Shown here piece by piece: positions 7,274 to 37,388 of a stretch of DNA of 64,000 nt. The notes beneath the pieces are model-generated. The model saw only the letters and a program-made list of their open reading frames with translations, was not told the DNA's origin and did no database searches. Within the stretch, counting starts at the first letter, position 1, and each line of letters starts with the position of its first letter. The translations under genes were made by a program, and so were the position numbers. Origin of the DNA: Bacillota bacterium (GTDB lineage Bacteria; Bacillota; Desulfotomaculia; Desulfotomaculales; Ammonificaceae); NCBI GenBank assembly GCA_040757355.1, contig JBFLWY010000012.1:204-64203 (forward strand). Reading direction: 5' to 3'.

Positions 7274-8408
7274 TTAGGATGTGATCGGGTATGTACTTGC
7301 TCGTTGTTTGGCCTCCGTCCGTAAAAAGGCGCGAATGAAACCGTCAATCTCACCGTCGAGCACCGCCTGAACGTTTCCCTGCTCGAGCCCGGTCCGGTGG
7401 TCCTTTACCAGACTGTACGGGTTTAAAACGTAAGAACGGATCTGGCTGCCCCAGGCAATTTCTCGTTGTTCCCCGCGTAGCGCCGCCAACTCCGCTTCTT
7501 GCTCTTTCAACTTAAGGTCCAGCAGCTTGGCCTGCAGAATCTCCATCGCCGAGGCCTTGTTTGCCGCCTGAGACCGCTCGCTCTGGCACGTAACCGTTAT
7601 CCCCGTCGGCAGGTGCGTTATTCGCACTGCAGATTCGGTTTTGTTAACGTGCTGGCCGCCCGCGCCGCTGGCCCTGAAGGTATCGATCCGCAGTTCCTCC
7701 GGTTTAATCTCTACCCCGGTATTCCCGGTTACAACCGGTAATATGTCAACCGAGGCAAATGAAGTGTGCCGCCTGCCGCCGGCGTCAAAGGGGGAGACAC
7801 GCACAAGACGGTGTACACCCCGCTCGGCCCGGAGGTATCCGTACGCGTTAAGCCCGATTACTTCAAAGGTCACACTCTTCAAACCCGCCTCGTCCCCGGG
7901 AAGCAAATCGAGGATTTTCACCTGGTAGCCCTGCGTCTCCGCCCAGCGCGTGTACATCCTGAGCAACATTGCCACCCAGTCCTGGGCATCCGTCCCCCCG
8001 GCGCCGGCATGAAGCGCCACTATGGCGTTCCCCGGGTCATAAGGGCCGGACAAAAGCACTGCTATTTCCATCGCGGCAACGCCTTCCGCAAGGTGTTTCA
8101 GGTCCAGTACAAGTTCGGCAAGGAGCCCGTCGTCGCTCTCTTCTTCCGCCAGATCGAGCAAAATGGCAATTTCTTCGCACTCGTTCCGGAGCCGCTTATA
8201 CTCGGAGAGCGTGTCACGCAGAGCCGCAAGCTGCTGTGTAACCGACTGAGCCTGGGTTTGATTATCCCAGAAACCGGGCGCGGCCATCTGAGCCTCTAAT
8301 TCAATGATTTTCTTTTCTTTGCCGGCTATGTCAAAGAGAAGCCCCGAGGCTTGTTAAACTTTCTTCCAAAACCTCGAGTTCCCGCCTTAGCTCTGCGTAC
8401 ACTTCCAT
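7274..8408 (-). CDS. prfB: peptide chain release factor 2, made by programmed +1 frameshift
   Basis: Frame 0 starts at ATG 8408 (RBS GGGAGG) and encodes MEVYAELRRELEVLEESLTSLGASL, then an in-frame UGA. A +1 shift at CUU UGA C continues DIAGKEKKIIELEAQMAAPGFWDNQ into ORF 7274-8287. SPF (RVSPFD) and GGQ (GGQHVNKT) motifs are present. Confidence 0.92.
8331..8336 (-). other. RF2 +1 frameshift site CUU UGA (C)
   Basis: The minus strand reads GGGGCUUCUCUUUGAC, an SD-like GGGG a few nt upstream of CUU-UGA-C. This is the canonical autoregulatory prfB recoding signal. Confidence 0.9.
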
Positions 8409-11387: not shown

Positions 11388-12041
11388 TCAACCGGTCAGT
11401 ACGCTAAGGCGCCGGTTTATGGCGTCGAGTGTGGCCTTTACAATTGCTTCCGATTCCTCCTCGCCGACCACCGCCGTCCCGGTCAAGAACTCCTCCCCCA
11501 GAGGGGAAAGGAGCGAGACACCGACTAAGACCACCTGTTTCCCGGCTAACGTGACCACGGCAAGGTCCTCCAAAATGAAGGTGTAGCCGCTTTGAGACTG
11601 ATTATCGAGAGCCGTAAGCATCGCCTGGGCGACCAACCGCCGCCGGTTCCGGGTTGAGGCCGGGCCTACTGCTACACCGCTCAAGACCGATCCCTTGCTG
11701 GCAATTTCCACCCGGACCTCTATTTGATTACCTTTGGTACTCACATTGAGGCCTATAAAGCGGGGGCGTTGTTCGGTCGGTATCAAACCGTTGCTTTCCG
11801 GCGGCTCTTGAAGATGGTTTACGGTTACCGTATCCGGCTTGATGTCGACCGCAAAGTACTTCTTCAGGACCTCCACAACGTCCCCAGCCACATCCGACGA
11901 ACTCCGCTCTGCACCCGCTAAAACCTGAATTGCATTCACGGTGCCGTCCGTGCCTGTAATGACGCGAGCAGAAACCACATCCGGAATATTACGCAGCATT
12001 TCCTCGCATAAGGTTACCTGCCCAGCCTCTAAAGTAGTCAT
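11388..12041 (-). CDS. hypothetical protein (no family recognised)
   Basis: 217-aa ORF wedged between hpf and secA. It starts 28 nt after the hpf stop, has coding-like composition and no TM segment. The two halves are rich in V/A beta-alpha patterns. Confidence 0.6.
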   Translation of the reverse strand: MTTLEAGQVTLCEEMLRNIPDVVSARVITGTDGTVNAIQVLAGAERSSSDVAGDVVEVLKKYFAVDIKPDTVTVNHLQEPPESNGLIPTEQRPRFIGLNVSTKGNQIEVRVEIASKGSVLSGVAVGPASTRNRRRLVAQAMLTALDNQSQSGYTFILEDLAVVTLAGKQVVLVGVSLLSPLGEEFLTGTAVVGEEESEAIVKATLDAINRRLSVLTG

Positions 12042-12730: not shown

Positions 12731-12758
12731 TAAAAGACCCCGGCTCGCAGCCGGGGTC
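12731..12758 (-). terminator. rho-independent terminator of the cold-shock gene
   Basis: Minus-strand RNA forms GACCCCGGC-UGCGA-GCCGGGGUC (9-bp GC-rich stem) followed by UUUUAUAUUU. It lies 12 nt after the stop codon. Confidence 0.85.
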
Positions 12759-12770
12759 TCCGATTTGTCA

Positions 12771-12971
12771 TTATAATTTTGTTACGTTAGCTGCTTGCGG
12801 CCCCCGCGGACCTTGCACTATCTCAAATTCAACCTCCTCGCCCTCCTGGAGCGATTTAAAGCCTCTCTCCTGAATAGCGGAGTAATGCACAAAAACATCT
12901 CCCCCACCATCCAACCGTTCAATAAAACCGTAACCCTTTTCCCTGCTGAACCACTTGACTCGACCTTGCAT
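12771..12971 (-). CDS. cold-shock protein (CspA family)
   Basis: 66 aa with RNP1 KGYGFI and RNP2 VFVHYS motifs. Confidence 0.95.
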
Positions 12972-13124
12972 TTAAAACATTCCTCCTGAAAAATTTCTTG
13001 CGCGGGTTGCCGCGTAGCCGTATCGTAACACACCGCATATCGCCTGTCAAGTTTTTGAAGTACGCTTTTGCTGTGGGCGCCCGGATCAAAAGCTTTCCCG
13101 CTTTTCCCGGCAGCAACCCGGAAG

Positions 13125-13844
13125 TTATGAGCCGGCCTTAATAATCTGTACGGTGAGTTTGCGCTGGAAACGCTGCAATACCTGGACGGTATTCCAGCCT
13201 AATATGAGGCAGAATAAGACGTTTCCGACAGCATGTAGAGTATCGAACCAAAAACTTGCTACACAAGCGGCGATAAAGGCCTTCCAGTTCAGGGGGTGTA
13301 AAAAATATGTCCAAAACCAGAGGTTCATACCCCAACCGAAAATGTATCCCCAGAGAAGGTTGAAAAAGGCCAAGCTCCTGATGTTTGATGTCGGCCATAC
13401 CATTCCCCACAAACCTGCAGACACCCCGGCCAGTCCCCAATAAAACATCTGCCAGGGTGTCCAGGGACCCTGCCCCAAAAAGAAATTCGAGACCAGTGCA
13501 GCCGTGGAGCCGACCAGGAAGCCAGCCCGCGGACCGAAAACAAATCCGGAGATGATTACAATAAAGGTGGTCGGCTGTATCCCGGGCAATGCGGTGCAGC
13601 AAACGCGCCCCAGCGCTGCTATTGTGCCCAGAACGGAAATCACCGCCACCTCCCTATGGAGACCCCGGCTTCGCCCGTACGCTGTGTAAAACAGAATCAA
13701 AGCAACACCAACCATTACGGTGGAAATCAGGCCCCAACCCTGCCCGGTTACAAGGCCTTTTCCGCGGAGACTACATACCAACAACACAAAAAGGGCTAAT
13801 AGCAACAAGGGAAGGGTTAACTTCCTTATCAATGTGCTACGCAT
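13125..13844 (-). CDS. ECF-transporter substrate-capture (S) component candidate, presumably corrinoid-specific
   Basis: Polytopic membrane protein with ~6-7 hydrophobic segments and an FVFGPRAGFLVGS motif like other S components. It is the last gene of the riboswitch operon. ATG 13844 (MRSTLIRK) overlaps the ATPase stop by 8 nt. Specificity is inferred from context only. Confidence 0.6.
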   Translation of the reverse strand: MRSTLIRKLTLPLLLLALFVLLVCSLRGKGLVTGQGWGLISTVMVGVALILFYTAYGRSRGLHREVAVISVLGTIAALGRVCCTALPGIQPTTFIVIISGFVFGPRAGFLVGSTAALVSNFFLGQGPWTPWQMFYWGLAGVSAGLWGMVWPTSNIRSLAFFNLLWGYIFGWGMNLWFWTYFLHPLNWKAFIAACVASFWFDTLHAVGNVLFCLILGWNTVQVLQRFQRKLTVQIIKAGS

Positions 13845-15513
13845 GGAAAACCCGCCCCGATTTCGCTCTAGGAGCAACCCGCTGCAGAGCATCCTTGACC
13901 GTTACTACACCCTCTGCATAGCCTCTGAAAAGCTTACCCATCTGAGTGGTGTAAAACAACGACTCCCCGAGAACACGGGTTTTAGCGCCATCACTGACTA
14001 TGCGGCCGTCGAAGACCAATACCACCCGCGAAGCAAATTCCGCGGCAAATTCGATATCGTGGGTGACAAGTACTATGCTGACCCCGCTCCGGGCAAGGCC
14101 CGTTAGGAATTCTCCAAGCTCGGCCTTTAACACCGGGTCCAAGCCCCGGGTAGGTTCGTCAAGCGCCAGTAGGCTGGGCTGCATCACCGCCACCGACGCT
14201 AAGGCCACTCGTTGCCGCTCCCCGCTGCTGAGGTCGCGGGGGTGCCGGCGCCGGCTTTCGTCCAACCGCAACCGCCGGAGGAGTTCGTCCACGATACCGT
14301 CATCACGAAGTCCGTGGTTTCGGAGTGTAAATAACAATTCCTCCTCAACGGTCTCCCGGAGCAGATAATCGTTGGGGTTCTGAGAAAGGTAGGCCGGTCG
14401 CCGGTCCCTTCTCATACTGTCAGCGGTCTCTTCGCTCCCCGACAACACCTTTCCCCGTCCCGGTTTGAGCAGTCCCACCATTATTTTCAACAACGTGGTT
14501 TTCCCGGCCCCGTTTTCGCCCACCACGGCTACAAACTCTCCGGTACCCACCTCGAGGTTTACGGCGCGCAAAGCCTCCCTGCCGTTGGGATAGGTGAACC
14601 ACACGTCCTTCAACCGAACCACAGTAGCCGGTCGCGGGGCCGCCTTAGCGGCGGTTTCCGGTTGCGACCCAGCAAACGTAAAACTTGTTGGGAGAAGCTT
14701 ACGCCCTTCTTGAACTGTAAGAGGAACGGGGGAAACGCCTAGATGAGCGAAAAACCTGGCAACGGGCGGCACAAAGGGAAACCCTTTCTCTACCGCCCAA
14801 AGCGCTGCCTTTACCGGCTTTTCATCCTGGACGATCCGGCCATCGGTCATAAAAACCACCCGGTCAGCCAGGTGGTAACAACGCTCCAACCGTTGTTCCA
14901 CCAGTATTACAGTCAAACCGATTTCTTCATTTAATCGCTTTACGAGGTTCAGCAACTCTTCAGCGGCCACCGGGTCAAGTTGAGAAGTAGGCTCGTCGAG
15001 GATAAGCGCCCGCGGTTGCATCGCGAGCACAGCAGCAAGCGCCAGTTTTTGTTTCTGCCCGCCGGACAGGCTCGCGGTGAATTCCCCCCTCAACGAGGTA
15101 AGTCCTAAAAAACCCATGACCTCCGCGGCCCGCCGAAGCATTTCGTCCGGAGGCAGCCCCAAGTTTTCGAGGCCAAAGGCGATCTCCGCTTCGACACCGG
15201 TCATCACCACCTGTTTTTCCGGATCCTGAAAGACCATCCCTACTTCCCGCGCCACCTGCCGCCCATCCAGCTTACTCATTCTCTGCCCGCGAAAGTAAGT
15301 TTCTCCCGCAATCCTTCCCCCATAGAATTCCGGAATCAACCCGGCCAGGACCCGAACAAGAGAGGACTTCCCCGACCCGGAACCGCCGGCAACCAGCAGG
15401 AACTCCCCCTCGCCGATGCTCAGATTGATCTGTTGCAAAGCGGGACGTAACGCGTCCGGGTAAAAGTAGGTTAAATTTTCAATCTTAAACAAGGACAATA
15501 CCGCCACCCCCAA
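13837..15513 (-). CDS. ECF-transporter ATPase, fused double ABC cassette (EcfA-EcfA')
   Basis: Two cassettes are present. Walker A motifs are GGSGSGKSS and GENGAGKTT; signatures are LSGGQKQKL and LSSGERQRV; Walker B motifs are LILDEPTS and LLALDEPTR. The start is uncertain (a TTG near 15498 has a better RBS). Confidence 0.9.
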   Translation of the reverse strand: MGVAVLSLFKIENLTYFYPDALRPALQQINLSIGEGEFLLVAGGSGSGKSSLVRVLAGLIPEFYGGRIAGETYFRGQRMSKLDGRQVAREVGMVFQDPEKQVVMTGVEAEIAFGLENLGLPPDEMLRRAAEVMGFLGLTSLRGEFTASLSGGQKQKLALAAVLAMQPRALILDEPTSQLDPVAAEELLNLVKRLNEEIGLTVILVEQRLERCYHLADRVVFMTDGRIVQDEKPVKAALWAVEKGFPFVPPVARFFAHLGVSPVPLTVQEGRKLLPTSFTFAGSQPETAAKAAPRPATVVRLKDVWFTYPNGREALRAVNLEVGTGEFVAVVGENGAGKTTLLKIMVGLLKPGRGKVLSGSEETADSMRRDRRPAYLSQNPNDYLLRETVEEELLFTLRNHGLRDDGIVDELLRRLRLDESRRRHPRDLSSGERQRVALASVAVMQPSLLALDEPTRGLDPVLKAELGEFLTGLARSGVSIVLVTHDIEFAAEFASRVVLVFDGRIVSDGAKTRVLGESLFYTTQMGKLFRGYAEGVVTVKDALQRVAPRAKSGRVFHA

Positions 15514-16409
15514 CTCAATAAAACCGGTACCGACAAAAGGAGAATTATCGCCAGCAAGCCGGTGAGGGTCGCAGAATCAGCAACCAGGAACCCCAACCGC
15601 GGGTAGAAATCAAAAGAACCGCAACCGCGGACCCGGCACCAAACTGCCACCGCCAGGGCCAAAATGGCGCTGCCCGCACATAAGACATCCCGGGGACGGG
15701 TTAAATCCCTCCGGTAGCACGAACGCCGGCCGCTGCCATAGGCCCGCGCGTGCAGGGCTTCCGCAATTTCAAGAGAACTTTCCAGGGAAGAAGAAAGTAA
15801 AACAGTAACCGGCAACGTGCTTTTCTCCAACCTTTCTTTCCATGTACCTTTCTTAAAATCAACCCCACGGCATACAAGGGCTTCCCGGATGATCCCGAGA
15901 TGCCTGGCCATCATCGGAACCATCCTGGAAGACAAGGACAAAACCAGAGCACTTCCTGCAGCAAAGCGGGAAATCAGGTTCAGCACCTTATCGGGGTGCA
16001 CCATCAGATTATACAGGCAAAACACACTGACCACGTTGAGTAGCCGGACCCCCATGGCCGCGCCGCAGCAAAGGGCTTCCAAGGAAACGGTCACTGCTCC
16101 GATAACCGGTAGCCGTGGACCGTCCCAGATAACACTCTCGCCGCAGTTTACCGTTAGAGCGTTCACAATTATGATAAATAACGTCATGCCTACGGCAAAT
16201 TTTAGGTAACTCTCCCAGTAGCCCAGCCCATCAACGGCCCGTATGCTCAGGAAAATAACCCCTAATATGCCGAGGAGATAAAGCGGGTGATTGAACAATA
16301 GTGAAAGAACGAATAAAACACCCACGTAGGTCATGGCAGTTACAGGGTGGAGGCTTTGTAAAAACAGGCCCTTTTCTTGGTAGAAGAATTTTTCAAACAC
16401 CGGGTTCAC
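15471..16409 (-). CDS. ECF-transporter transmembrane (T) component, EcfT/CbiQ family
   Basis: 312 aa, multi-TM, with the ARG-containing coupling helices (SRMVPMMARHLGIIREALVCRGVD) typical of CbiQ/EcfT. Confidence 0.85.
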   Translation of the reverse strand: MNPVFEKFFYQEKGLFLQSLHPVTAMTYVGVLFVLSLLFNHPLYLLGILGVIFLSIRAVDGLGYWESYLKFAVGMTLFIIIVNALTVNCGESVIWDGPRLPVIGAVTVSLEALCCGAAMGVRLLNVVSVFCLYNLMVHPDKVLNLISRFAAGSALVLSLSSRMVPMMARHLGIIREALVCRGVDFKKGTWKERLEKSTLPVTVLLSSSLESSLEIAEALHARAYGSGRRSCYRRDLTRPRDVLCAGSAILALAVAVWCRVRGCGSFDFYPRLGFLVADSATLTGLLAIILLLSVPVLLSWGWRYCPCLRLKI

Positions 16410-16478
16410 TTCCTGATTCGCAACCTTGATATGGGTTACACCGGTGGACCGAGGGCACCGAAAATCTTCGCGCCGGGT

Positions 16479-17855
16479 CTAATACCGTATAAACACCGTG
16501 CCCGTGGTACTGTCCCAATCCACGCGATAGCCGAAAGCTTCCGCTACAAACCTAGCGGGGAGATAAGTCCTACCGCTCTTAATCAAAGGGATGGCGTCCA
16601 TTTTTTTAGCCCGGCCGTTCACATTGAGGACGGCATTTCCGATAACCAGGTCAAGTTCCGTCCCGTCCATCTTCAGGTTGACGGACCGGTTGCCGGCGTT
16701 CCAACGGATACCGGCTTCCGGCACGCCCAATGCACTCGCCAGATAACGCACGGGAACATAAGCGCGCCCGTTTTCAATAAACGGGCTGGCGTCGGCAACC
16801 AACTCTTGCCGGCACTCTCCCAAAACAACCGTATAGCGGCTGCTCCCGATGGTGAAACAAGCTTCTCTTTTCTTCTCATCCACTTTGCACGCAGCAGGCT
16901 GGGTATCCTTGTTCAACCTGCGAAAGAACGGTTCACCGCAGCGAAGGTCCGCTAAGGCCAGCAAAGCCTGGTAAGTGCTCATTTCGTTGCTTCCCGCACC
17001 CCTCACGTGTTCGAACGAGCCATCGGGCAACTGGAAGCGAAGCAACGCGTCGAGAAGACCGCCACCTGCCCGGCTGAATCCTTCCGAAGGATCGGCACTC
17101 ACTGACAACAGGCCTTCAATGACCATGGCACAGCTTTCCGGATTCTCTATACCCCATGATTCAAAACCGCCGTTTTCTTTCTGCGCACGTTGCAAAAAGC
17201 CGACAGCTCGCTCAACTGCGGTACTTTTATCATCGAGACCCAAAGCGCCAAGCGCCATCAACGCCGCGCCGGTTGTATCCACATCGGCCGTACTCATGTC
17301 CGCGGCATTCCAGCAAAAAGAACCGTCCGGATGCTGCCGCGTCGTTAACCACTCTATGGCGGCATCCTTGTCTGGAACGGCCGCACCTGCAGCGTACAGG
17401 GCCAACACCGCCCAAATATGAGCGTTAACAAGCCGTTCGCCGCCGGTAGTGACGTTATCGGCAAACTTGCCACTGGCAAGCTGAGCTTCCTTAAGCTTTC
17501 GCAAAAGGTCATACCCCTGGTAGTCTGCAGGGTCGCCGCCGGCGGCAAGCACCGTCAACACCAGTACCGCATAGTCGTTGGTTTCACCGGAGCTGAGGGC
17601 TGCTGCAAGCATCTTTTCAGCAGCACGGTCGACCTGTGTTAAAGTCAAATTTTGTCCCGCAGCCGCGAGGGCGATGTAACTCCAGGGGGATAAAGGCCCA
17701 CTACTCCTTTCTTTTGACAGCAGATAGCCGGCCGTACGTTGCACCGGTTGGTCCACGTCGCTTCTGGTAAAAGCACGGGCGTTTCCAGCATTAATACATG
17801 CCACCATACCGGTTATTAACAACACCACGAGAAACCTGCTGTTGTTTATTCGCAC
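16479..17855 (-). CDS. secreted alpha/alpha-toroid (prenyltransferase / terpene-cyclase-like repeat) protein with C-terminal copper-amine-oxidase-N-like domain
   Basis: GTG 17855 (RBS GGAGAGGTG) gives a signal peptide RINNSRFLVVLLITGMVAC. Repeated Q-x-x-DG-[SG]-F motifs occur (RQHPDGSFCW, QKENGGFESW, FQLPDGSFEH, LASGKFAD). The C-terminus RAYVPVRYLASALGV...GRTYLPARFVAEAFGYRVDWD resembles the Cu_amine_oxidN1 stalk domain. Confidence 0.75.
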   Translation of the reverse strand: MRINNSRFLVVLLITGMVACINAGNARAFTRSDVDQPVQRTAGYLLSKERSSGPLSPWSYIALAAAGQNLTLTQVDRAAEKMLAAALSSGETNDYAVLVLTVLAAGGDPADYQGYDLLRKLKEAQLASGKFADNVTTGGERLVNAHIWAVLALYAAGAAVPDKDAAIEWLTTRQHPDGSFCWNAADMSTADVDTTGAALMALGALGLDDKSTAVERAVGFLQRAQKENGGFESWGIENPESCAMVIEGLLSVSADPSEGFSRAGGGLLDALLRFQLPDGSFEHVRGAGSNEMSTYQALLALADLRCGEPFFRRLNKDTQPAACKVDEKKREACFTIGSSRYTVVLGECRQELVADASPFIENGRAYVPVRYLASALGVPEAGIRWNAGNRSVNLKMDGTELDLVIGNAVLNVNGRAKKMDAIPLIKSGRTYLPARFVAEAFGYRVDWDSTTGTVFIRY

Positions 17856-17887
17856 GAGTTCACCTCTCCGCAATAGATTACGTCCTA

Positions 17888-18622
17888 CTAGAAACCGAGA
17901 CTCTCCCAACTGGGGCCCGGGTTATCAATGCTTTCACTGTACCACCAGATAATCTTATCACCGTGCGCTATTCTCTTGGCTCCGGCCGCAATCATTGCAA
18001 CTTCGCCGTTGACCTTGTACATCCAACCGCACATTCCCTTGTTCGACTGCCCTGCTATACTGAACACCAGGTCATGATGCACGGCGCTTAGGCTGTAATC
18101 CAGCCCAGCGGCATCCAGGGCGCCTAAAACCGTTAAGCCCCATTTTCCACTGTTATTAACCACAACATTGGCAGGACCATATATCAAAACGCCTTTCATT
18201 CCAACGACGGCAATCGCTACCTGGACACTTCCGCCGGCTGGGGCCGCCGGCACCGCACCCTCTAAACCGCCCTCTTGACTGTCTGCCGGGAGTAAGTCCG
18301 ATCCGGACAGGCCTGACCGGCTTCCTTCGGGGGGAAGATTATTCTTAGGTTTTTGGAGCGGTCCAAAGTTTTTGACACTTTCGCTACCTGCCGAAGAACT
18401 CTCCGGCTTGATCTCTCCGGAAACCGTTTCATAAGTACTTTCGACTGCTGAACCTCCATTACCTGATTTCACAGCAGGCGAGCCTTCGTGATAACTCCCC
18501 GGCTCCCCGCACATATCATTGTCCGGCCGTGGGGAGTTAAGCTTCTGTTTGCACAAGGCCGGCCCCAGCAGGCACGACAGTATTATCAGCGCCGTTAAAA
18601 TATAACCCAAGTTACGTGTCAA
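17888..18622 (-). CDS. membrane-anchored DUF4430-type (transcobalamin beta-domain-like) protein
   Basis: TTG 18622 (RBS GGGGGTGG) gives the N-terminal TM YILTALIILSCLLGPALC, then a Ser/Pro/Gly-rich linker. The C-terminal domain VAIAVVGMKGVLIYGP...KWGLTVLGALDAAGL...GMCGWMYKVNGE...GDKIIWWYS is clearly paralogous to aa 663-770 of the 987-aa protein. The ORF-track start at 18676 is an alternative. Confidence 0.75.
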   Translation of the reverse strand: MTRNLGYILTALIILSCLLGPALCKQKLNSPRPDNDMCGEPGSYHEGSPAVKSGNGGSAVESTYETVSGEIKPESSSAGSESVKNFGPLQKPKNNLPPEGSRSGLSGSDLLPADSQEGGLEGAVPAAPAGGSVQVAIAVVGMKGVLIYGPANVVVNNSGKWGLTVLGALDAAGLDYSLSAVHHDLVFSIAGQSNKGMCGWMYKVNGEVAMIAAGAKRIAHGDKIIWWYSESIDNPGPSWESLGF

Positions 18623-18713
18623 CGAGAACCACCCCCACGATAAGCCGAATCCGTCACGCCGGAAGGAGCGCCGCACCCGCTGCAGCGCTCCCTCCAGTCC
18701 TTTGATGTTACTC

Positions 18714-21677
18714 TCAGTCTTTTTGCGCCGCGCCGGTCAACCTGAATACCATAACAGCGCATTCAGCGCGGCTCGCCAAGGTCCGGGGCCGGAAAGTGCC
18801 GTCAGGGAAGCCGGTTACAATGCCCCTGGCGGCTGCGATGGCCACACTGTCCCTGGCCCACAGAGAAATCTTATCGCTGTCTTTGTACCTCAGATCGGTT
18901 GCACCTTCCGGTGCCGCCAGGTTTAGGGCGCGTGCTAGGACAACCGTAGCTTCTTCCCGGGTAATGGCGTCATTCGGGCGGAATGACCCGTCGGCGTAGC
19001 CTTTGAACAAGCCGGCTTCGGCGGCGGCAATAACAGCAGCGGTATACCAATCGCCACTCCCAACATCAGTAAAGTGATTTGCCGGATTGTCTCCGCTGTC
19101 GAGGCCCAAAGCCCTGACAAGAAGGCTTGAAAACTCCGCCCTGGTCATTGCCCGGGCGGGCTCAAAATGAACCCCGTCCACCCCGTCGATTGCACCGGCC
19201 GCAGCAAGGGCCTCAACGGCATCCCATGCCCAAGCGAAAGAGCCGGCCCCTACGTCGGCAAAGCGCCCCTCCCCCGGGATTGGTGCCGGTTGCACATCCA
19301 CCGGTACAACCGGGGTTGGAGACGGCGCTTCATTCCCGCCCCCGGAGCTTGGTTCCACTTTTCTCTTGAGCAGGTCGTCCCATGCGGGAGCGGGGGAATT
19401 CAAGTCCACACTGTACCACCATAGAACCCGGTCTCCCGCCTGCAGGCCATAATCCTTGGCGGCGACCATAGGTACTGTATCGTTAACCTGGTACATCCAC
19501 CCACACATACCGCTGTTGGTTTGCCCAGCGATATTGATAACGAAGCCGTTTACATCCTGGTAAGTGAGACCGGTAGCGTGCAGCGCTCCTAACGGTGTGA
19601 GGCCCCACTTTCCGTAACTGCCGATCAGGACACTCTCGGGCCCGAAGAGCAGTTCGCCGTCTAGCCCCACAACGGCTATTTCCACGCTGCAATTGTTCCC
19701 TGACGACCCGGAACCGCCGCTGTCGTCCCCGGACGACCCGCCGGAATCACCAGCGTCCGGCGTGTCGCTTCCAGCCTGCTCAATCAGCAGGTAAGCGTGT
19801 AGGGCTTCGGTGGCGTCAAGAACGTTGCGGCACGCACCAAAACTGCCGTCCGGGTTCAAAGCGCTGTTCAACAAGTAGTCGACAGGGCTGAATCCGTCGC
19901 TGCTCTCCAATTCGGCCGGGTCCATCCCCTGTTGATATAGGGTGATGACGAATTCCGCCGTATCAACCAGGGGGTCGTCAGGCCAGGGTGTGTCCTTGTA
20001 AACGCTGCCGTCTACCTGCTGCCACTTTCCGAGATACCCGATACCGGTATCAATCGCTGTTTGTATCTCTCCATCCCCGGTAAAATCCGGTAAGCTAAGA
20101 AGGTGCGAAAGAGAACGAACGGCTTGGCAGGTGGCCATGAAATCGGCCCAGTCCTTATCCCAGGACCCGTAAGCATCGCCGGCAACCGTCTGTTGTCTGG
20201 AGAGAAGATACGCTTTTGCGCCGCTCACATCAAGGCTGTCGAGCCTGCCGGCCGTCCCCAGTGCAAGGTAAGCCCAGAGATCGCTGAAAATGTTGTTGTC
20301 AAAACCGTCAGCTGAATGCCTTTGTTGGAGGATTTCGGAGAGTTTGCCCACCCGGCCGGCGTCGTTCCACCCGGCTATGGCCATCAGGCACTCGGCGACG
20401 GTTTTCGACCGCGTCTGCTTCATCCACGGCGAGCCGTTGCCGGCGTAGTCTTCATACTCCTTTCCTAAGGCCTTGAGCGCAATCAGTGTCTCCGCAGTGG
20501 AAAAGGTACTGTCCCATTGAGCGGGAACGGCACCGGTATCGTTATCTTGAACGTCAAGGAGGTAGGTCAGGCCGCCCTCAATGTCTTTAAAAACAGTATG
20601 ATCGGGATCATCCGCTCCCTCAAAATAACTGAGCGCCGTGAGCACCTGCGCCGTCAGGTCGGATTCCTCAGGCAGATATCCACCCCAGGCCACGCCGGCG
20701 CTTGAACCCCAGCAGTCCACATGCTCGTGTTTGAACTCATTAAGGTATTCGAGAGCCTTTGCTTGGTCGATGCGGGAAACGTTTCCCGTCTTGCCGAGGG
20801 CGGTCAAGACCATCACATGATCGTAAACGCTTTGCCCGAAATTGCCGCCGTCCTGATTCTGTCCGCCAATTATGGCGTCGGCCAGCGTAGCGATATCATC
20901 TGAATGCGGGTAGACGGCATATAGAACGGTCAGTTCCTTCGCCAGATAAACTGCGTCCAAGGCAGAAGTGTCAGCGGCTGCAGCGGCCGCAGAAGCAAGC
21001 ACTTCCGCCTTTAGTGATTTACCGTTATAAACCCAGTCGCCGGTCGAAAGGTCCTCTCCGGCCTCAACCAGTGCTTCCACACACCGGTAGTCAAAACCGA
21101 ACCCGTTCACCTCGTAGCCGAGTTCTCCGCTCTGATACGCGGTACGGAAAAAACCGACCGCGCTGTCGATGGCATTCTTTACTTCGTCATAAACAGCAGA
21201 ACCGGCCGGCACATCCGGTCTTATCCGGGCGAGCGCCTGCAGCGCCGCTTTGGTGCCGTAAGCGCCGCCATATGGACCGAAGCTGCCGTCGTCGTTCTGC
21301 GTACCCAGGATGAAACTGATCAAGCCCCTCTCATCACCGCACAGATCACCCAGTTTTTCTATCCTGGCTTTTAAGGTTCTGGTGCCGGCCGTCCAAAACG
21401 GTCCCCCGCTCCACTTCTCGCCCGCCAGGTCTTCCCCCGCCAGCGTCAATACGTAAGCAGTATGACCGTTTATCAGTTCCCCGCCTTGATACTCCTTATT
21501 GATAAAATCCACCGCCTTCGCGGCAAGGTCCCCGGCGGAATACGCGCCGGACGGTACAGCCGGTTCATCAGCAACCCCAACAGAAACCGGCATCAGGAGT
21601 GAAACGATACCGGCGAAGAAAACTATGATCAACGCCAACGTAAAATAAGTCGGCCGCTTTTTGGTCTGTGCACCCAT
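18714..21677 (-). CDS. S-layer-homology-anchored surface protein: alpha/alpha-toroid repeats + DUF4430-type domain + 3 SLH (transcobalamin-like architecture)
   Basis: The signal peptide is aa 1-35. The toroid repeats span aa ~45-635 (nt 19773-21545; QNDDGSFGPYGG, QNQDGGNFGQ, VQDNDTGAVP, RHSADGFDN, WQQVDGSVY, LNPDGSFGAC). A G/S/D linker precedes the DUF4430-like domain at aa 663-770 (nt 19368-19691; GMCGWMYQVND...RVLWWYS). A Pro-rich linker precedes three SLH repeats at aa 805-983 (nt 18729-19265; FADVG..., FTDVG...GYADGSFRPND, YKDSD...GFPDGTFRP). Confidence 0.85.
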   Translation of the reverse strand: MGAQTKKRPTYFTLALIIVFFAGIVSLLMPVSVGVADEPAVPSGAYSAGDLAAKAVDFINKEYQGGELINGHTAYVLTLAGEDLAGEKWSGGPFWTAGTRTLKARIEKLGDLCGDERGLISFILGTQNDDGSFGPYGGAYGTKAALQALARIRPDVPAGSAVYDEVKNAIDSAVGFFRTAYQSGELGYEVNGFGFDYRCVEALVEAGEDLSTGDWVYNGKSLKAEVLASAAAAAADTSALDAVYLAKELTVLYAVYPHSDDIATLADAIIGGQNQDGGNFGQSVYDHVMVLTALGKTGNVSRIDQAKALEYLNEFKHEHVDCWGSSAGVAWGGYLPEESDLTAQVLTALSYFEGADDPDHTVFKDIEGGLTYLLDVQDNDTGAVPAQWDSTFSTAETLIALKALGKEYEDYAGNGSPWMKQTRSKTVAECLMAIAGWNDAGRVGKLSEILQQRHSADGFDNNIFSDLWAYLALGTAGRLDSLDVSGAKAYLLSRQQTVAGDAYGSWDKDWADFMATCQAVRSLSHLLSLPDFTGDGEIQTAIDTGIGYLGKWQQVDGSVYKDTPWPDDPLVDTAEFVITLYQQGMDPAELESSDGFSPVDYLLNSALNPDGSFGACRNVLDATEALHAYLLIEQAGSDTPDAGDSGGSSGDDSGGSGSSGNNCSVEIAVVGLDGELLFGPESVLIGSYGKWGLTPLGALHATGLTYQDVNGFVINIAGQTNSGMCGWMYQVNDTVPMVAAKDYGLQAGDRVLWWYSVDLNSPAPAWDDLLKRKVEPSSGGGNEAPSPTPVVPVDVQPAPIPGEGRFADVGAGSFAWAWDAVEALAAAGAIDGVDGVHFEPARAMTRAEFSSLLVRALGLDSGDNPANHFTDVGSGDWYTAAVIAAAEAGLFKGYADGSFRPNDAITREEATVVLARALNLAAPEGATDLRYKDSDKISLWARDSVAIAAARGIVTGFPDGTFRPRTLASRAECAVMVFRLTGAAQKD

Positions 21678-21893
21678 TTCTCGTTCAGCCCACCTTTCGC
21701 TCCTAAAAGTCTAAGAAATCAATCGTTTGTTCCGGGGGCGCCAGCCCGTTTTTTTGTTACAGGAGGGCTTCACCCACGACCAGCCCGGACCCGCATGAAA
21801 AAATCCCCCATCATAACGGACGGAGGATAATCTTCCATGTGCGTGAATACGCCATGCCAAACACCCCCTATTCGCGTAGGTTGGGTTTGAAAC

Positions 21894-22132
21894 GGAACGG
21901 GCAGGTCTCCTGGCTCGGCTTCACCGGCACCTTTTGTCTTCCCAGGCATCCCAGCAGTTGTGATTACCTGCGGTTCGGCATTCGGGTTCCCTATAAAGGA
22001 CCCGTATACGCCGCATACCGCCGGGAGCAGCCCAGTGACATTTTGCAAGGCACCTCCCCCTTACAGTGGCGGAACCGCGCCGGATTCACACCGGCTTCCC
22101 TTTTCACCGCCCAAAGGGCAAGCACCCGTTCC
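21894..22132 (-). promoter_or_regulatory. cobalamin (B12) riboswitch aptamer
   Basis: On minus-strand RNA, P1 is GGAACGGG (22132-22125) pairing with CCCGUUCC (21901-21894). The core is GGUGAAAAGGGAAGCCGGUGUGAAUCCGGCGCGGUUCCGCCACUGUAAGGGGGAG. The CACUGGG...CUGGGAAG elements are present, as is the B12 box AGCCAGGAGACCUGCC (21915-21900). Confidence 0.9.
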
Positions 22133-22152
22133 ATGTATTAAATTGTTAACTC

Positions 22153-22181
22153 ATAAAAACATATTTTGAATAGGTTGTCAA
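22153..22181 (-). promoter_or_regulatory. putative sigma-A promoter of the riboswitch operon
   Basis: The minus strand reads TTGACA (22181-22176), a 17-nt spacer, then TTTTAT (22158-22153), about 20 nt upstream of riboswitch P1. Confidence 0.45.
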
Positions 22182-35505: not shown

Positions 35506-36348
35506 CTAACCTTTTAGAAACTCGGCCAACTCCTGATCAGGCATTAAAAAAGCATGTTCCGTGCCCGGAAACTCCTTTTCAATGACTTCTCTTCGAAAAC
35601 TGTCCAGCGCACGCCGGATTTCCTCGACCAGGTTCGCGTAACGTTTTGCGAACTTCGGCGAAAAACCCCCGTAAAGTCCAAGAAGGTCGTGGGTGACCAG
35701 AACCTGCCCGTCACAGTCCACACCGGCCCCGATCCCGATCGTCGGCACCGCCACCGTTTCCGTGATATGCTTGGCCACCTCTGCCGGAACACATTCCAGC
35801 ACAATCGAGAAGGCCCCGGCCTCAGCCAGGGTCACAGCGTCCTGGACGAGACGGCGTGCTGCCTGAGCCTGTCGTCCCTGTACCCGGTAGCCACCCAACT
35901 GGTGCACATACTGGGGAGTAAGGCCGATGTGGCCCATTACCGGGATGCCGCTGGAGACTATTGCTCGCACGGTATCAGCCACCTCCTGCCCGCCCTCGAG
36001 CTTTACCGCCTGGGCGCCCGCCTCTTTCAGAAACAGCCCGGCATTTCGCACGGCTTCCGGGATCGAAACCTGATAGGACAGAAAAGGCATATCCCCAATA
36101 ACCAGGGCCCGGGAAACACCTCTCGCCACCGCCCGGGTATGGTGCAGCATCTCTTCCATCGTAACAGGGAGCGTGGAATCGTAACCCAAGACAACGTTGC
36201 CCAAAGAGTCCCCCACAAGGATGGCGTCTATTCCGGCTTCGTCCACCAAGCGGGCTGTTGGAAAATCGTAGGCCGTGAGCATCGTAATCGGCCGCTTTTC
36301 TTCCTTCCACCGTCGGAAATCTGACGTAGTCACACGTTCTTTCGCCAA
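35506..36348 (-). CDS. panB: 3-methyl-2-oxobutanoate hydroxymethyltransferase
   Basis: ITMLTAYDFPTARL, VGDSLGNV and GIGAG motifs. 280 aa. Confidence 0.95.
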   Translation of the reverse strand: MAKERVTTSDFRRWKEEKRPITMLTAYDFPTARLVDEAGIDAILVGDSLGNVVLGYDSTLPVTMEEMLHHTRAVARGVSRALVIGDMPFLSYQVSIPEAVRNAGLFLKEAGAQAVKLEGGQEVADTVRAIVSSGIPVMGHIGLTPQYVHQLGGYRVQGRQAQAARRLVQDAVTLAEAGAFSIVLECVPAEVAKHITETVAVPTIGIGAGVDCDGQVLVTHDLLGLYGGFSPKFAKRYANLVEEIRRALDSFRREVIEKEFPGTEHAFLMPDQELAEFLKG

Positions 36349-37214
36349 TTTTCACACCCCTCACCGAATATTCTCCCCAACTCCGCCGACACGTCGTCAG
36401 GCAACCCTTTTTCCTGCGCCACCTTGACCGTAAAACAACCCAGCATCCGATACATCTCCCACTCTTCCTTCCCCATTACCTGGGCGTGCCGGCGAATGGT
36501 TTCAACGTCCCCGCGGGCGACCGGTCCAGTCAGCGCAGCAACCGGCCCGACCGCGCCGATATTCTGCAGCGTTCCCTGGATAAGCGGGTAAAATGCCGGA
36601 AAAACGCCCTCGCGGGGTAAACCGGCCTGTTGCGCCAAGGTGTATACGAGCCGCATAAGAGTAACCAGATAGTTTGACGCAACGCAGGCGGCTGCATGGT
36701 AAAGCGGCTTCCCAGCAGCCTCGATTTCAAAAAGGACTCCTTCTAGATCCGCAACCAACCGGCGAGCCAGTGGAAGTGCTTCCGGTTCCCCTTCAAAGGT
36801 GAAGTAGGAGCCGGGCAGGCGTTCCACCGTCAGTTCCGGAGAGGCAAAGGACTGGAGCGGGTGAAGCGAGAAAACTATTGCCCCCGCTTTCCGCGCCGGT
36901 TCAAGCACTGCCGAGGGCAGCGCCCCGCTGGCGTGAGCCGCAAACTGACCCGGGCAAAAACCCCCTTTTCGTGCCACCTCCTCAGCAACAGATCCTATCA
37001 ATCCGTCGGGCGTTGTCAGGAATACAAGTTCACCCTCACGCGCTGCTTCTGCCGCCGTCTGATAAATCTTCGCCCCGGTCTCCTGCGCAAGCTTACCCGC
37101 CGACGACGCGCTGCGGCTCGCCACCGCCGCCACCGGGTACCCTTTTTCCCGCAACCGCATTGCTAGCGCCGTGCCAACTCTCCCTGCCCCGATGATCGCC
37201 ACTTTTGGCCGCAA
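36330..37214 (-). CDS. Rossmann-fold oxidoreductase (DUF2520-type), candidate ketopantoate reductase
   Basis: TTG 37214/37217 follows AAGGGGGTG and gives (M)RPKVAIIGAGRVGTALA, a dinucleotide fold. It is the first gene of the panB operon and overlaps panB by 19 nt. The function is inferred from context only. Confidence 0.65.
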   Translation of the reverse strand: MRPKVAIIGAGRVGTALAMRLREKGYPVAAVASRSASSAGKLAQETGAKIYQTAAEAAREGELVFLTTPDGLIGSVAEEVARKGGFCPGQFAAHASGALPSAVLEPARKAGAIVFSLHPLQSFASPELTVERLPGSYFTFEGEPEALPLARRLVADLEGVLFEIEAAGKPLYHAAACVASNYLVTLMRLVYTLAQQAGLPREGVFPAFYPLIQGTLQNIGAVGPVAALTGPVARGDVETIRRHAQVMGKEEWEMYRMLGCFTVKVAQEKGLPDDVSAELGRIFGEGCENWRKNV

Positions 37215-37227
37215 CAAACCACCCCCT

Positions 37228-37264
37228 TTAAAAAAACAAAAACCCCCGGACTTTATCCGAAAGG
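37228..37264 (-). terminator. leader terminator (attenuator) immediately upstream of the pan operon RBS
   Basis: Minus-strand RNA forms CUUUCGGA-UAAAG-UCCGGGGG (8 bp, three of them G.U) followed by UUUUUGUUUUUUU, then AAAGGGGGUGG and the start codon. Confidence 0.45.
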
Positions 37265-37388
37265 CAAATCGCATTACCCCCCGTCTCGGTCCTTCGCGGC
37301 TCCAAGCGGTATTTCCCAACAAACTCTAAAACCGGGTGAGGCTCCCTCTAAGGATGCCGCCCTTACATAAAATGACTTACAGGTTACA

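Follow-up and report, generated by a model that had tools for sequence, protein, structure and literature searches.

The question raised by the locus described here is why three exported proteins should be encoded in a single run of genes with a membrane importer, and what substrate they would share. The locus occupies positions 13125-22181, on the minus strand, of a 64,000-nucleotide (nt) stretch of a Bacillota bacterium genome (contig JBFLWY010000012.1); this whole stretch is referred to as the window, and coordinates are given in it. A cobalamin riboswitch is followed by six open reading frames (ORFs) in the same orientation, encoding the exported proteins P1, P2 and P3 and then EcfT, EcfAA' and an S-component, the last three making up an importer of the energy-coupling factor (ECF) type. 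The answer favored here, with a probability of roughly 0.7, is a corrinoid-repressed uptake operon in which surface binders are combined with a dedicated ECF importer. This reading is supported by the riboswitch, by the similarity of the S-component to the B12 transporter CbrT, by matches to the transcobalamin type of fold, and by the near-universal co-occurrence of the riboswitch with related operons. Surface capture followed by ECF import had been proposed in an earlier reading of the sequence alone (the original prediction), and to this extent it is computationally supported; its claim of novelty was overstated, as shown below.

An Rfam scan of the whole window returned one cobalamin riboswitch, an RF00174 match at 22144..21883 (minus strand) that scored 111 bits (E 6e-27; gathering score 31.5) and confirmed the element originally placed at 21894-22132. 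The full model (1-189) was covered, and the variable arm carries an 80-nt insertion. The 81-nt core model (R1) used for the survey of other genomes scored 90.9 bits at the same site.

Upstream, and ending about 7 nt from the aptamer, lies a candidate sigma-70 promoter (22152..22180, minus strand), read directly as TTGACA (22180-22175), a 17-nt spacer and TTTTAT (22157-22152); TG stands two bases before this second hexamer. The hexamers and spacer claimed earlier are thus present. A consensus promoter scan did not list the site, whose -10 hexamer has a base other than A at its second position; for this reason the promoter is regarded as plausible, with no statistical support from that scan.

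The putative expression platform was located by a terminator scan and by folding. An intrinsic terminator at 21797..21828 (minus strand), consisting of a 10-bp hairpin followed by a T-run, is situated 55 nt past the aptamer, leaving about 120 nt to the first start codon. Folding of 21905-21790 yielded -44.3 kcal/mol (z -2.8), with the terminator hairpin present in the minimum free energy structure. Since the hairpin and T-run stand between the aptamer and the first start, the riboswitch most likely works by transcription termination. At high intracellular coenzyme B12 the aptamer would be occupied, the terminator would form and transcription would stop; at low B12 all six genes would be transcribed.

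The genes behind this leader either overlap or are separated by 37-91 nt, the figures depending on which start is taken for P2. The originally described arrangement of six same-strand genes with short gaps and overlaps was therefore recovered. The SLH, DUF4430, toroid, EcfT, fused ATPase and S-component identities all exceed the Pfam cut-offs.

The three distal genes encode the importer. EcfT (15471..16409, minus strand), the transmembrane coupling subunit, belongs to the CbiQ family (PF02361, 36.8 bits, cut-off 25); transmembrane segments were seen, and its two coupling-helix motifs of the x-R-G/A type were found at residue 177 (ALVCRG) and residue 218 (ALHARA). EcfAA' (13837..15513, minus strand) is a fused EcfA-EcfA' double ABC ATPase, matched by TIGR04520 (370 bits, cut-off 315), by TIGR04521 (353 bits, cut-off 330) and twice by ABC_tran. 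Its Walker A motifs are at residues 43 and 332, and its signature motifs at residues 149 (LSGGQ) and 429 (SSGE).

The S-component gene (13125..13892, minus strand; 239 aa from 13844 in the database copy) completes the importer. The product was matched by Pfam ECF_trnsprt (PF12822) with 32.3 bits against a cut-off of 30.7, and a phmmer search of PDB aligned its residues 85-245 with residues 15-175 of 6FNP_A, the CbrT chain of L. delbrueckii (E 4.2e-12, 161 residues). Judged by sequence, it is a CbrT homologue. Members of its family, which comprises 1600 relatives, are about 235-250 aa long, compared with 182 aa for CbrT. The N-terminal extension of about 60 residues holds two hydrophobic segments, 8-26 and 37-55, each possibly a further transmembrane helix.

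For the characterized L. delbrueckii protein, ATP-dependent cobalamin and cobinamide transport by ECF-CbrT was reported, with hemin acting as no competitor; that CbrT works with a shared (group II) ECF module and also functions alone in proteoliposomes (Santos et al. 2018, eLife). The window operon shares with it a homologous S-component and the ECF architecture. It differs in that S, EcfT and two EcfA domains are encoded together in adjacent or overlapping genes, the group I arrangement, with fused A subunits and a longer S-component, and in the extracellular binders that ECF-CbrT does not have. A dedicated T/A module, which had been taken as a feature of CbrT-type importers, is consequently a difference from the characterized system and not a common trait.

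Automatic annotation points to CbiQ and CbiO as the best named families for the T and A subunits, and cobalt transporters, too, stand under B12 riboswitches. The operon could on these grounds encode a cobalt or nickel ECF transporter, and the surface proteins would then be unrelated wall proteins. Against this, neither CbiM nor CbiN was matched by Pfam in the operon, and the S-component is of the CbrT type. Moreover, in one of the related loci surveyed below (L011), a second cobalamin riboswitch followed by cbiM-cbiN-cbiQ-cbiO and then cbiC (17496-21634) lies directly after the homologous operon. The existence of this complete, separately controlled cbiMNQO set indicates that the ECF system with the binders and the cobalt transporter are separate systems, and a metal importer is considered highly improbable.

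The first gene encodes P1 (18714..21677, minus strand; 987 aa), which is identical to a database protein from a Bacillota metagenome-assembled genome. Based on Pfam, AlphaFold (AF2) and Foldseek results, it consists of a Sec signal peptide, two toroids (residues about 45-335 and 335-640), a Gly/Ser linker, a DUF4430 domain (about 662-770) and an SLH region (about 800-980). DUF4430, the Pfam family that covers the C-terminal domain of vertebrate transcobalamins (TCN), was matched with 46.3 bits (cut-off 23.8). The SLH family (PF00395) was found in three tandem stretches with 125 bits; this region also matched B. anthracis Sap (E 1e-16) and the SbsB structure.

The AF2 model of residues 36-775, with 43 homologues as input, reached a mean predicted local distance difference test (pLDDT) score of 91.1 and a predicted TM-score (pTM) of 0.79. 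In it, two 12-helix alpha/alpha toroids in succession are followed by a disordered Gly/Ser linker and then by a beta-grasp domain. In the numbering of the modelled construct, the latter has strands at 627-635, 641-651, 690-696 and 715-721, a helix at 660-666 and a hairpin at 671-674/677-681, with pLDDT of 80-95. A beta-hairpin inserted after the helix is the feature by which the transcobalamin-like clade of SLBB domains was defined (Burroughs et al. 2007), and it is present in the model.

When the P1 model was compared with PDB by Foldseek, ranks 1-11 were all transcobalamin or haptocorrin, aligned over about 400 columns with E 5e-7 to 1e-5. Intrinsic factor followed at ranks 16-17, and class II terpene cyclases came later, aligned to the double toroid. 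Like mammalian transcobalamin, intrinsic factor and haptocorrin, P1 combines a 12-helix toroid, a linker and a DUF4430-type domain within a single secreted chain. It differs from them in its additional N-terminal toroid, its wall anchor and the lack of a toroid sequence match to transcobalamin. The system as a whole also differs, as no receptor-mediated endocytosis is involved and delivery would be to a membrane transporter.

Among 1.84 billion representative proteins, 102 relatives of P1 were found below 1e-30. Many of them align over the second toroid and DUF4430 as one continuous stretch, which is the architecture of transcobalamin; the transcobalamin-like unit is therefore taken as the conserved core, to which the first toroid was added. 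A direct sequence link between the toroids and transcobalamin was tried and rejected, as both the single sequence and a 43-sequence profile retrieved only SLH proteins and squalene-hopene cyclases from the PDB sequences. Likewise, no Pfam match to Cobalamin_bind at E<=0.01 was obtained among the operon proteins, which leaves them outside the alpha-domain family.

A length difference among the P1 proteins was also noted. Most homologues (P0002-P0076) are about 1150-1250 aa long; between DUF4430 and SLH they have an additional conserved segment, some 170 residues in length and in some of them a Big_2 domain. This segment is absent from the window P1 and from the 984-986 aa homologues P0048 and P0057.

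P2 (17888..18676, minus strand) is a 262-aa ORF whose true start, judged from homologue N-termini, probably lies about 18 codons further in, at 18622, giving about 244 aa. Composition and hydropathy divide it into a hydrophobic anchor at the N-terminus, a tether of about 120 aa rich in Gly, Ser and Pro, and a C-terminal DUF4430 domain (Pfam, 52.1 bits, cut-off 23.8) that is 50% identical to that of P1 (E 4e-33). P3 (16479..17909, minus strand) is a 476-aa ORF, probably 458 aa from 17855; the nearest homologue has 458 aa. It contains a Sec signal peptide, one 12-helix alpha/alpha toroid matched by the Pfam models SQHop_cyclase_C/Prenyltrans, and a Cu_amine_oxidN1 'stalk' domain (115 bits). Its AF2 model reached a pLDDT of 92.4, and 133 homologues were found.

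Lipoprotein anchoring of P2 and P3 was considered and rejected. A PROSITE-type pattern detected lipoboxes (IILSC, GMVAC) in the window proteins, but in only 3 of 39 P2 and 2 of 46 P3 homologues. P2 is instead read as anchored by its transmembrane helix, after which a GPA(I/V)Y motif is conserved (N-termini of 39 homologues), and P3 as Sec-secreted.

Because the toroid sequences match squalene-hopene cyclase and prenyltransferase models, P1 and P3 might act outside the cell as enzymes on envelope lipids or glycans, in the manner of terpene cyclases, prenyltransferases or glycoside hydrolases. The P3 family even has an invariant D-V-D-(S/T)-T-G at residues 191-196 of the 458-aa form, a D-x-D-(S/T)-T-G pattern that resembles DxDDTA, the catalytic motif of class II terpene cyclases. 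However, the third Asp of DxDD is lost in P3, no DxDD motif was seen in P1, and the proteins are exported. The incomplete motif, the export signals and the B12-uptake neighbors place the toroid proteins outside the class II cyclases and prenyltransferases. In addition, DUF4430 proteins, the ECF-CbrT importer and the B12 riboswitch are the only conserved neighbors, and the second toroid is matched together with DUF4430 in many relatives, as described above. An enzymatic role is accordingly scarcely credible. The D-V-D-(S/T)-T-G motif may be an ancestral relic or a ligand-contact site.

For the conservation survey, one genome per species was scanned, which yielded 71 Bacillota loci in which binder genes lie beside EcfT, EcfAA' and S genes. 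They include loci from Moorella, Pelotomaculum, Desulfotomaculum, Thermosediminibacter, Syntrophomonas and Clostridium. Riboswitches were searched with the 81-nt core model, which agreed with Rfam at all six loci checked, and gene content was determined by mapping the window proteins with tblastn.

In 56 of the 71 loci, the 3 kb preceding the first binder gene contain a same-strand riboswitch, at a median distance of 522 nt. In the six loci tested with Rfam, a cobalamin riboswitch stood directly upstream every time, in tandem in two of them. Tandem cores before the binder gene were observed in 11 loci (L003, L006, L014, L016, L026, L029, L032, L035, L036, L044 and L049), those at L003 and L044 being the Rfam-confirmed cases. 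The 15 loci outside the 56 comprise 10 without usable upstream DNA and five multi-binder Clostridium or Marinisporobacter loci, in which riboswitches precede other genes of the cluster, either binder or ECF genes.

The usual order is riboswitch, P1, P2, optional P3, EcfT, EcfAA' and S, and the EcfT-EcfAA'-S order of the window recurs in 47 riboswitch-bearing related loci. By eye count, about 19 loci have P2 but lack P3. About 10 loci from Syntrophomonadaceae and Desulfallas (also by eye count) carry a toroid-SLH gene that separates the ATPase gene from the S gene; for these, the tblastn mapping detected no P2-type gene standing on its own. From this gene content, P1 is the constant element and the other binders are accessories.

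A second CbrT-like S-component gene was observed right after the SLH protein gene in L016 (9731-10363), L022 (14450-15064) and L023 (13432-14046). In these loci it is additional to the copy at the end of the operon, and remnants were seen in L030 (13418-13623).

Further B12-related operons adjoin some of the loci. Besides the cbiMNQO-cbiC operon of L011, L055 carries a second cobalamin riboswitch with a BtuFCD-type binding-protein ABC importer (18163-21733), again directly after the homologous operon. From these two cases it follows that B12-regulated uptake and synthesis genes cluster, and the binder-linked ECF system coexists with B12 synthesis and with other B12 importers.

Taken as a corrinoid uptake operon, the locus would work as follows. 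EcfT, EcfAA' and S would form a dedicated (group I) importer, with an S-component homologous to CbrT, a transporter of B12 and cobinamide. P1, P2 and P3 would be extracytoplasmic corrinoid binders made of the two modules of transcobalamin: P1 with toroid and beta domain in one chain and fixed to a wall polymer by its SLH repeats, P3 as a secreted toroid with a stalk domain, and P2 as a lone beta domain held at the membrane by a flexible tether of about 120 residues. P1, and possibly P3 and P2 paired in trans, would capture corrinoids at the wall or S-layer; these would then be delivered to the S-component and taken up with expenditure of ATP. The identities and families of these elements, their predicted folds and their joint conservation are as described above; corrinoid as the ligand of the binders is strongly inferred from them, and the order of hand-off and a physical contact of the binders with the S-component we infer at a lower level of confidence.

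Separate P2 and P3 proteins are plausible as working parts by analogy with transcobalamin. Its lone beta domain (TC-beta) binds cyanocobalamin and cobinamide, and joins the alpha domain (TC-alpha) in trans only with cobalamin present; since the two can assemble around cobalamin in this way, a split pair could do so as well. A relay graded by depth may tentatively be imagined, with P1 in the wall polymer, P3 as a free toroid on its stalk domain and P2 on its membrane tether of about 120 residues. In such a relay, P2 would take over the corrinoid, close on a toroid in trans in the manner of TC-beta and TC-alpha, and carry the corrinoid to the S-component, docking at the two extra N-terminal helices. 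This detailed scheme is rather doubtful.

Several observations weigh against the corrinoid uptake interpretation. The TM-scores of P1 to transcobalamin are modest (0.42-0.45, target-normalized, at a root-mean-square deviation of about 11 A), and they do not establish the toroid/beta orientation of the model as a closed, ligand-enclosing form. The toroids have no sequence match to transcobalamin, squalene-hopene cyclases being matched instead. For P3, the top Foldseek hits were squalene-hopene cyclase and prenyltransferase beta subunits, with intrinsic factor at rank 10. In the literature searched, no binding or transport study of these proteins was found, and the one genetically studied operon with the same parts was tied to heme uptake (bioRxiv 10.1101/864751). 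According to the tblastn mapping, P2 and P3 are each dispensable in many loci, from which it follows that a fixed three-step relay cannot be general. Finally, several carriers are likely B12 producers, as suggested by the cbiC adjoining the operon in L011, so scavenging may not be the sole role.

As to the toroids themselves, P3 was rejected as a specifically transcobalamin-like protein because of this Foldseek ranking. The transcobalamin-like toroid of the original prediction consequently holds for the fold of P1, with its ranks 1-11, and P3 alone looks like a generic toroid of the cyclase/prenyltransferase kind.

The variable presence of P2 and P3 also bears on the possibility that the binders keep or hoard corrinoids at the surface without feeding the importer, the ECF-CbrT system being independent of them. 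Hoarding could serve to deprive competitors, to recapture cobamides leaked by a producer, or to select or remodel cobamide forms. It would fit the fact that ECF S-components are high-affinity binders needing no soluble partner, as illustrated by CbrT working alone in proteoliposomes, and that in some carriers B12 synthesis genes, or a BtuFCD-type system with a riboswitch of its own, adjoin the operon. In dozens of species, however, the binder and ECF genes form one riboswitch-controlled unit with tight spacing or overlaps, and such a common transcription unit argues for one joint function. Hoarding without import is therefore judged unlikely.

The heme result concerns the substrate. In L. sakei, the genes Lsa1836-1840 were deleted and complemented, heme was claimed as the substrate, and extracellular binders were proposed to feed the ECF importer (Verplaetse et al., bioRxiv 10.1101/864751). 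At 5 and 40 uM, uptake of 57Fe-hemin was lower in the mutant and was regained on complementation, and docking set heme between the modelled alpha-like and beta-like proteins. When compared by component list, five of the six components are shared with the window operon, namely S, fused AA', T, a secreted beta-like protein and a likewise secreted alpha-toroid-like protein; the L. sakei operon lacks the SLH-anchored fusion.

Heme or another tetrapyrrole as the substrate in the window is nonetheless very unlikely. A cobalamin riboswitch precedes the window operon and at least 56 related loci, and the S-component is homologous to CbrT, where hemin does not compete. The L. sakei effects were seen at micromolar heme only, the paper contains no riboswitch analysis, and the likeness to the window operon is one of component lists. 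The description of the extracellular half as experimentally undescribed thus holds for corrinoid binding and hand-off, and does not hold for the operon type, which has been studied genetically in L. sakei with heme as the claimed substrate.

The corrinoid reading itself has an older computational precedent. Bacterial secreted or wall-anchored proteins with a toroid and a transcobalamin-type SLBB domain were predicted by Burroughs, Balaji, Iyer and Aravind in 2007 (Biol Direct 2:4; PMC1796856), who cited a Desulfotomaculum protein with an N-terminal toroid and described operons with a second, paralogous SLBB protein and CbiO/CbiQ-like genes. The proposed role was scavenging of B12 or a precursor in Gram-positive bacteria, and the toroid-SLBB fusion was proposed as the source, via transfer, of animal transcobalamin (PMC1796856).

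The window proteins share with those proteins the signal peptide, the toroid N-terminal to the beta-grasp domain, the SLBB paralogue and the CbiO/CbiQ-like neighbors. They are secreted or predicted to be transmembrane-anchored, P2 is paralogous to the beta domain of P1, and the ECF genes lie downstream. The novelty claimed originally for a surface capture system of this kind therefore does not stand; the operon is a further example of a computationally predicted kind, and its functional reading is not new. Riboswitch control, SLH anchoring, the doubled toroid and the S-component go beyond the 2007 study, in which they are not mentioned. The carriers were described there as usually lacking B12 synthesis, in contrast to L011 with its adjoining cbiC.

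Among better-known systems, the logic of surface-tethered binders that pass a scarce tetrapyrrole to a transporter is shared with BtuG, BtuH and BtuJ of Bacteroides, where riboswitch control is also found. The Bacteroides binders are outer-membrane lipoproteins that feed a TonB-dependent transporter, and their folds are not known to be related to those of the window binders. The Gram-positive Isd heme relay, built from sortase-anchored NEAT proteins, follows the same capture-and-pass logic. The window system differs from both in its anchors (SLH repeats, a stalk domain and a transmembrane tether) and in its acceptor, an ECF S-component. Extracellular cobamide capture in Gram-positive bacteria was called "entirely uncharacterized" in a 2026 review.

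Regarding the surroundings of the operon, the 518 nt past the S-component gene were considered as a part of it and rejected, as they contain a separately promoted and terminated cold-shock protein gene (12771-12970, minus strand). Its promoter (13022-13050) matches at 10 of 12 positions and has TG, its terminator (12733-12761) has 13 bp, and the gene is shorter than the ORF length cut-offs. Because these 518 nt hold an independent gene, the operon ends at 13125. The flanking genes are of the housekeeping type (ftsEX, tkt, prfB, secA, hpf, lysS, greA, dusB, coaX, birA, nadCBA and panDC), and no further B12 genes were found among the window ORFs tested.

Three other features of the window were recorded. 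The family profile match of the prfB (release factor 2) ORF (7274-8287, minus strand) begins only at position 31, which agrees with the well-known programmed +1 frameshift near the prfB start. A pan motif (RF01749; 37277-37363, minus strand; 50.7 bits, E 7e-6) reaches from just upstream of the minus-strand ORF 36330-37322 into its 5' end; this ORF heads a gene run containing panC and panD. A 217-aa ORF between hpf and secA (11388-12041, minus strand) had no NCBIfam match at E<=1e-5.

What is added here to the earlier prediction is the near-universal riboswitch control, the CbrT identity and N-terminal extension of the S-component, the doubled toroid, the anchoring pattern of SLH repeats, stalk domain and transmembrane tether, and the presence of likely B12 producers among the carriers. 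The value of the locus is less that of a new concept than that of an experimental opportunity, and its interest as a target is moderate. The operon family is widespread in clostridia-type bacteria: more than 60 species have it, among them cultivable Moorella, Desulfotomaculum, Thermosediminibacter and Heliomicrobium (Heliobacterium in older annotation). It makes a good test case, with confident predicted structures and domains that should be soluble and expressible.

The family bears on the proposed Gram-positive origin of animal transcobalamin and could settle how general the heme assignment from L. sakei is. ECF transporters are taught as importers that work without soluble binding proteins. 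If the relay is true, it would provide the first substrate-delivery protein for ECF transporters, a class defined by having none, and a living model for the ancestor that animal transcobalamin would have had in bacteria.

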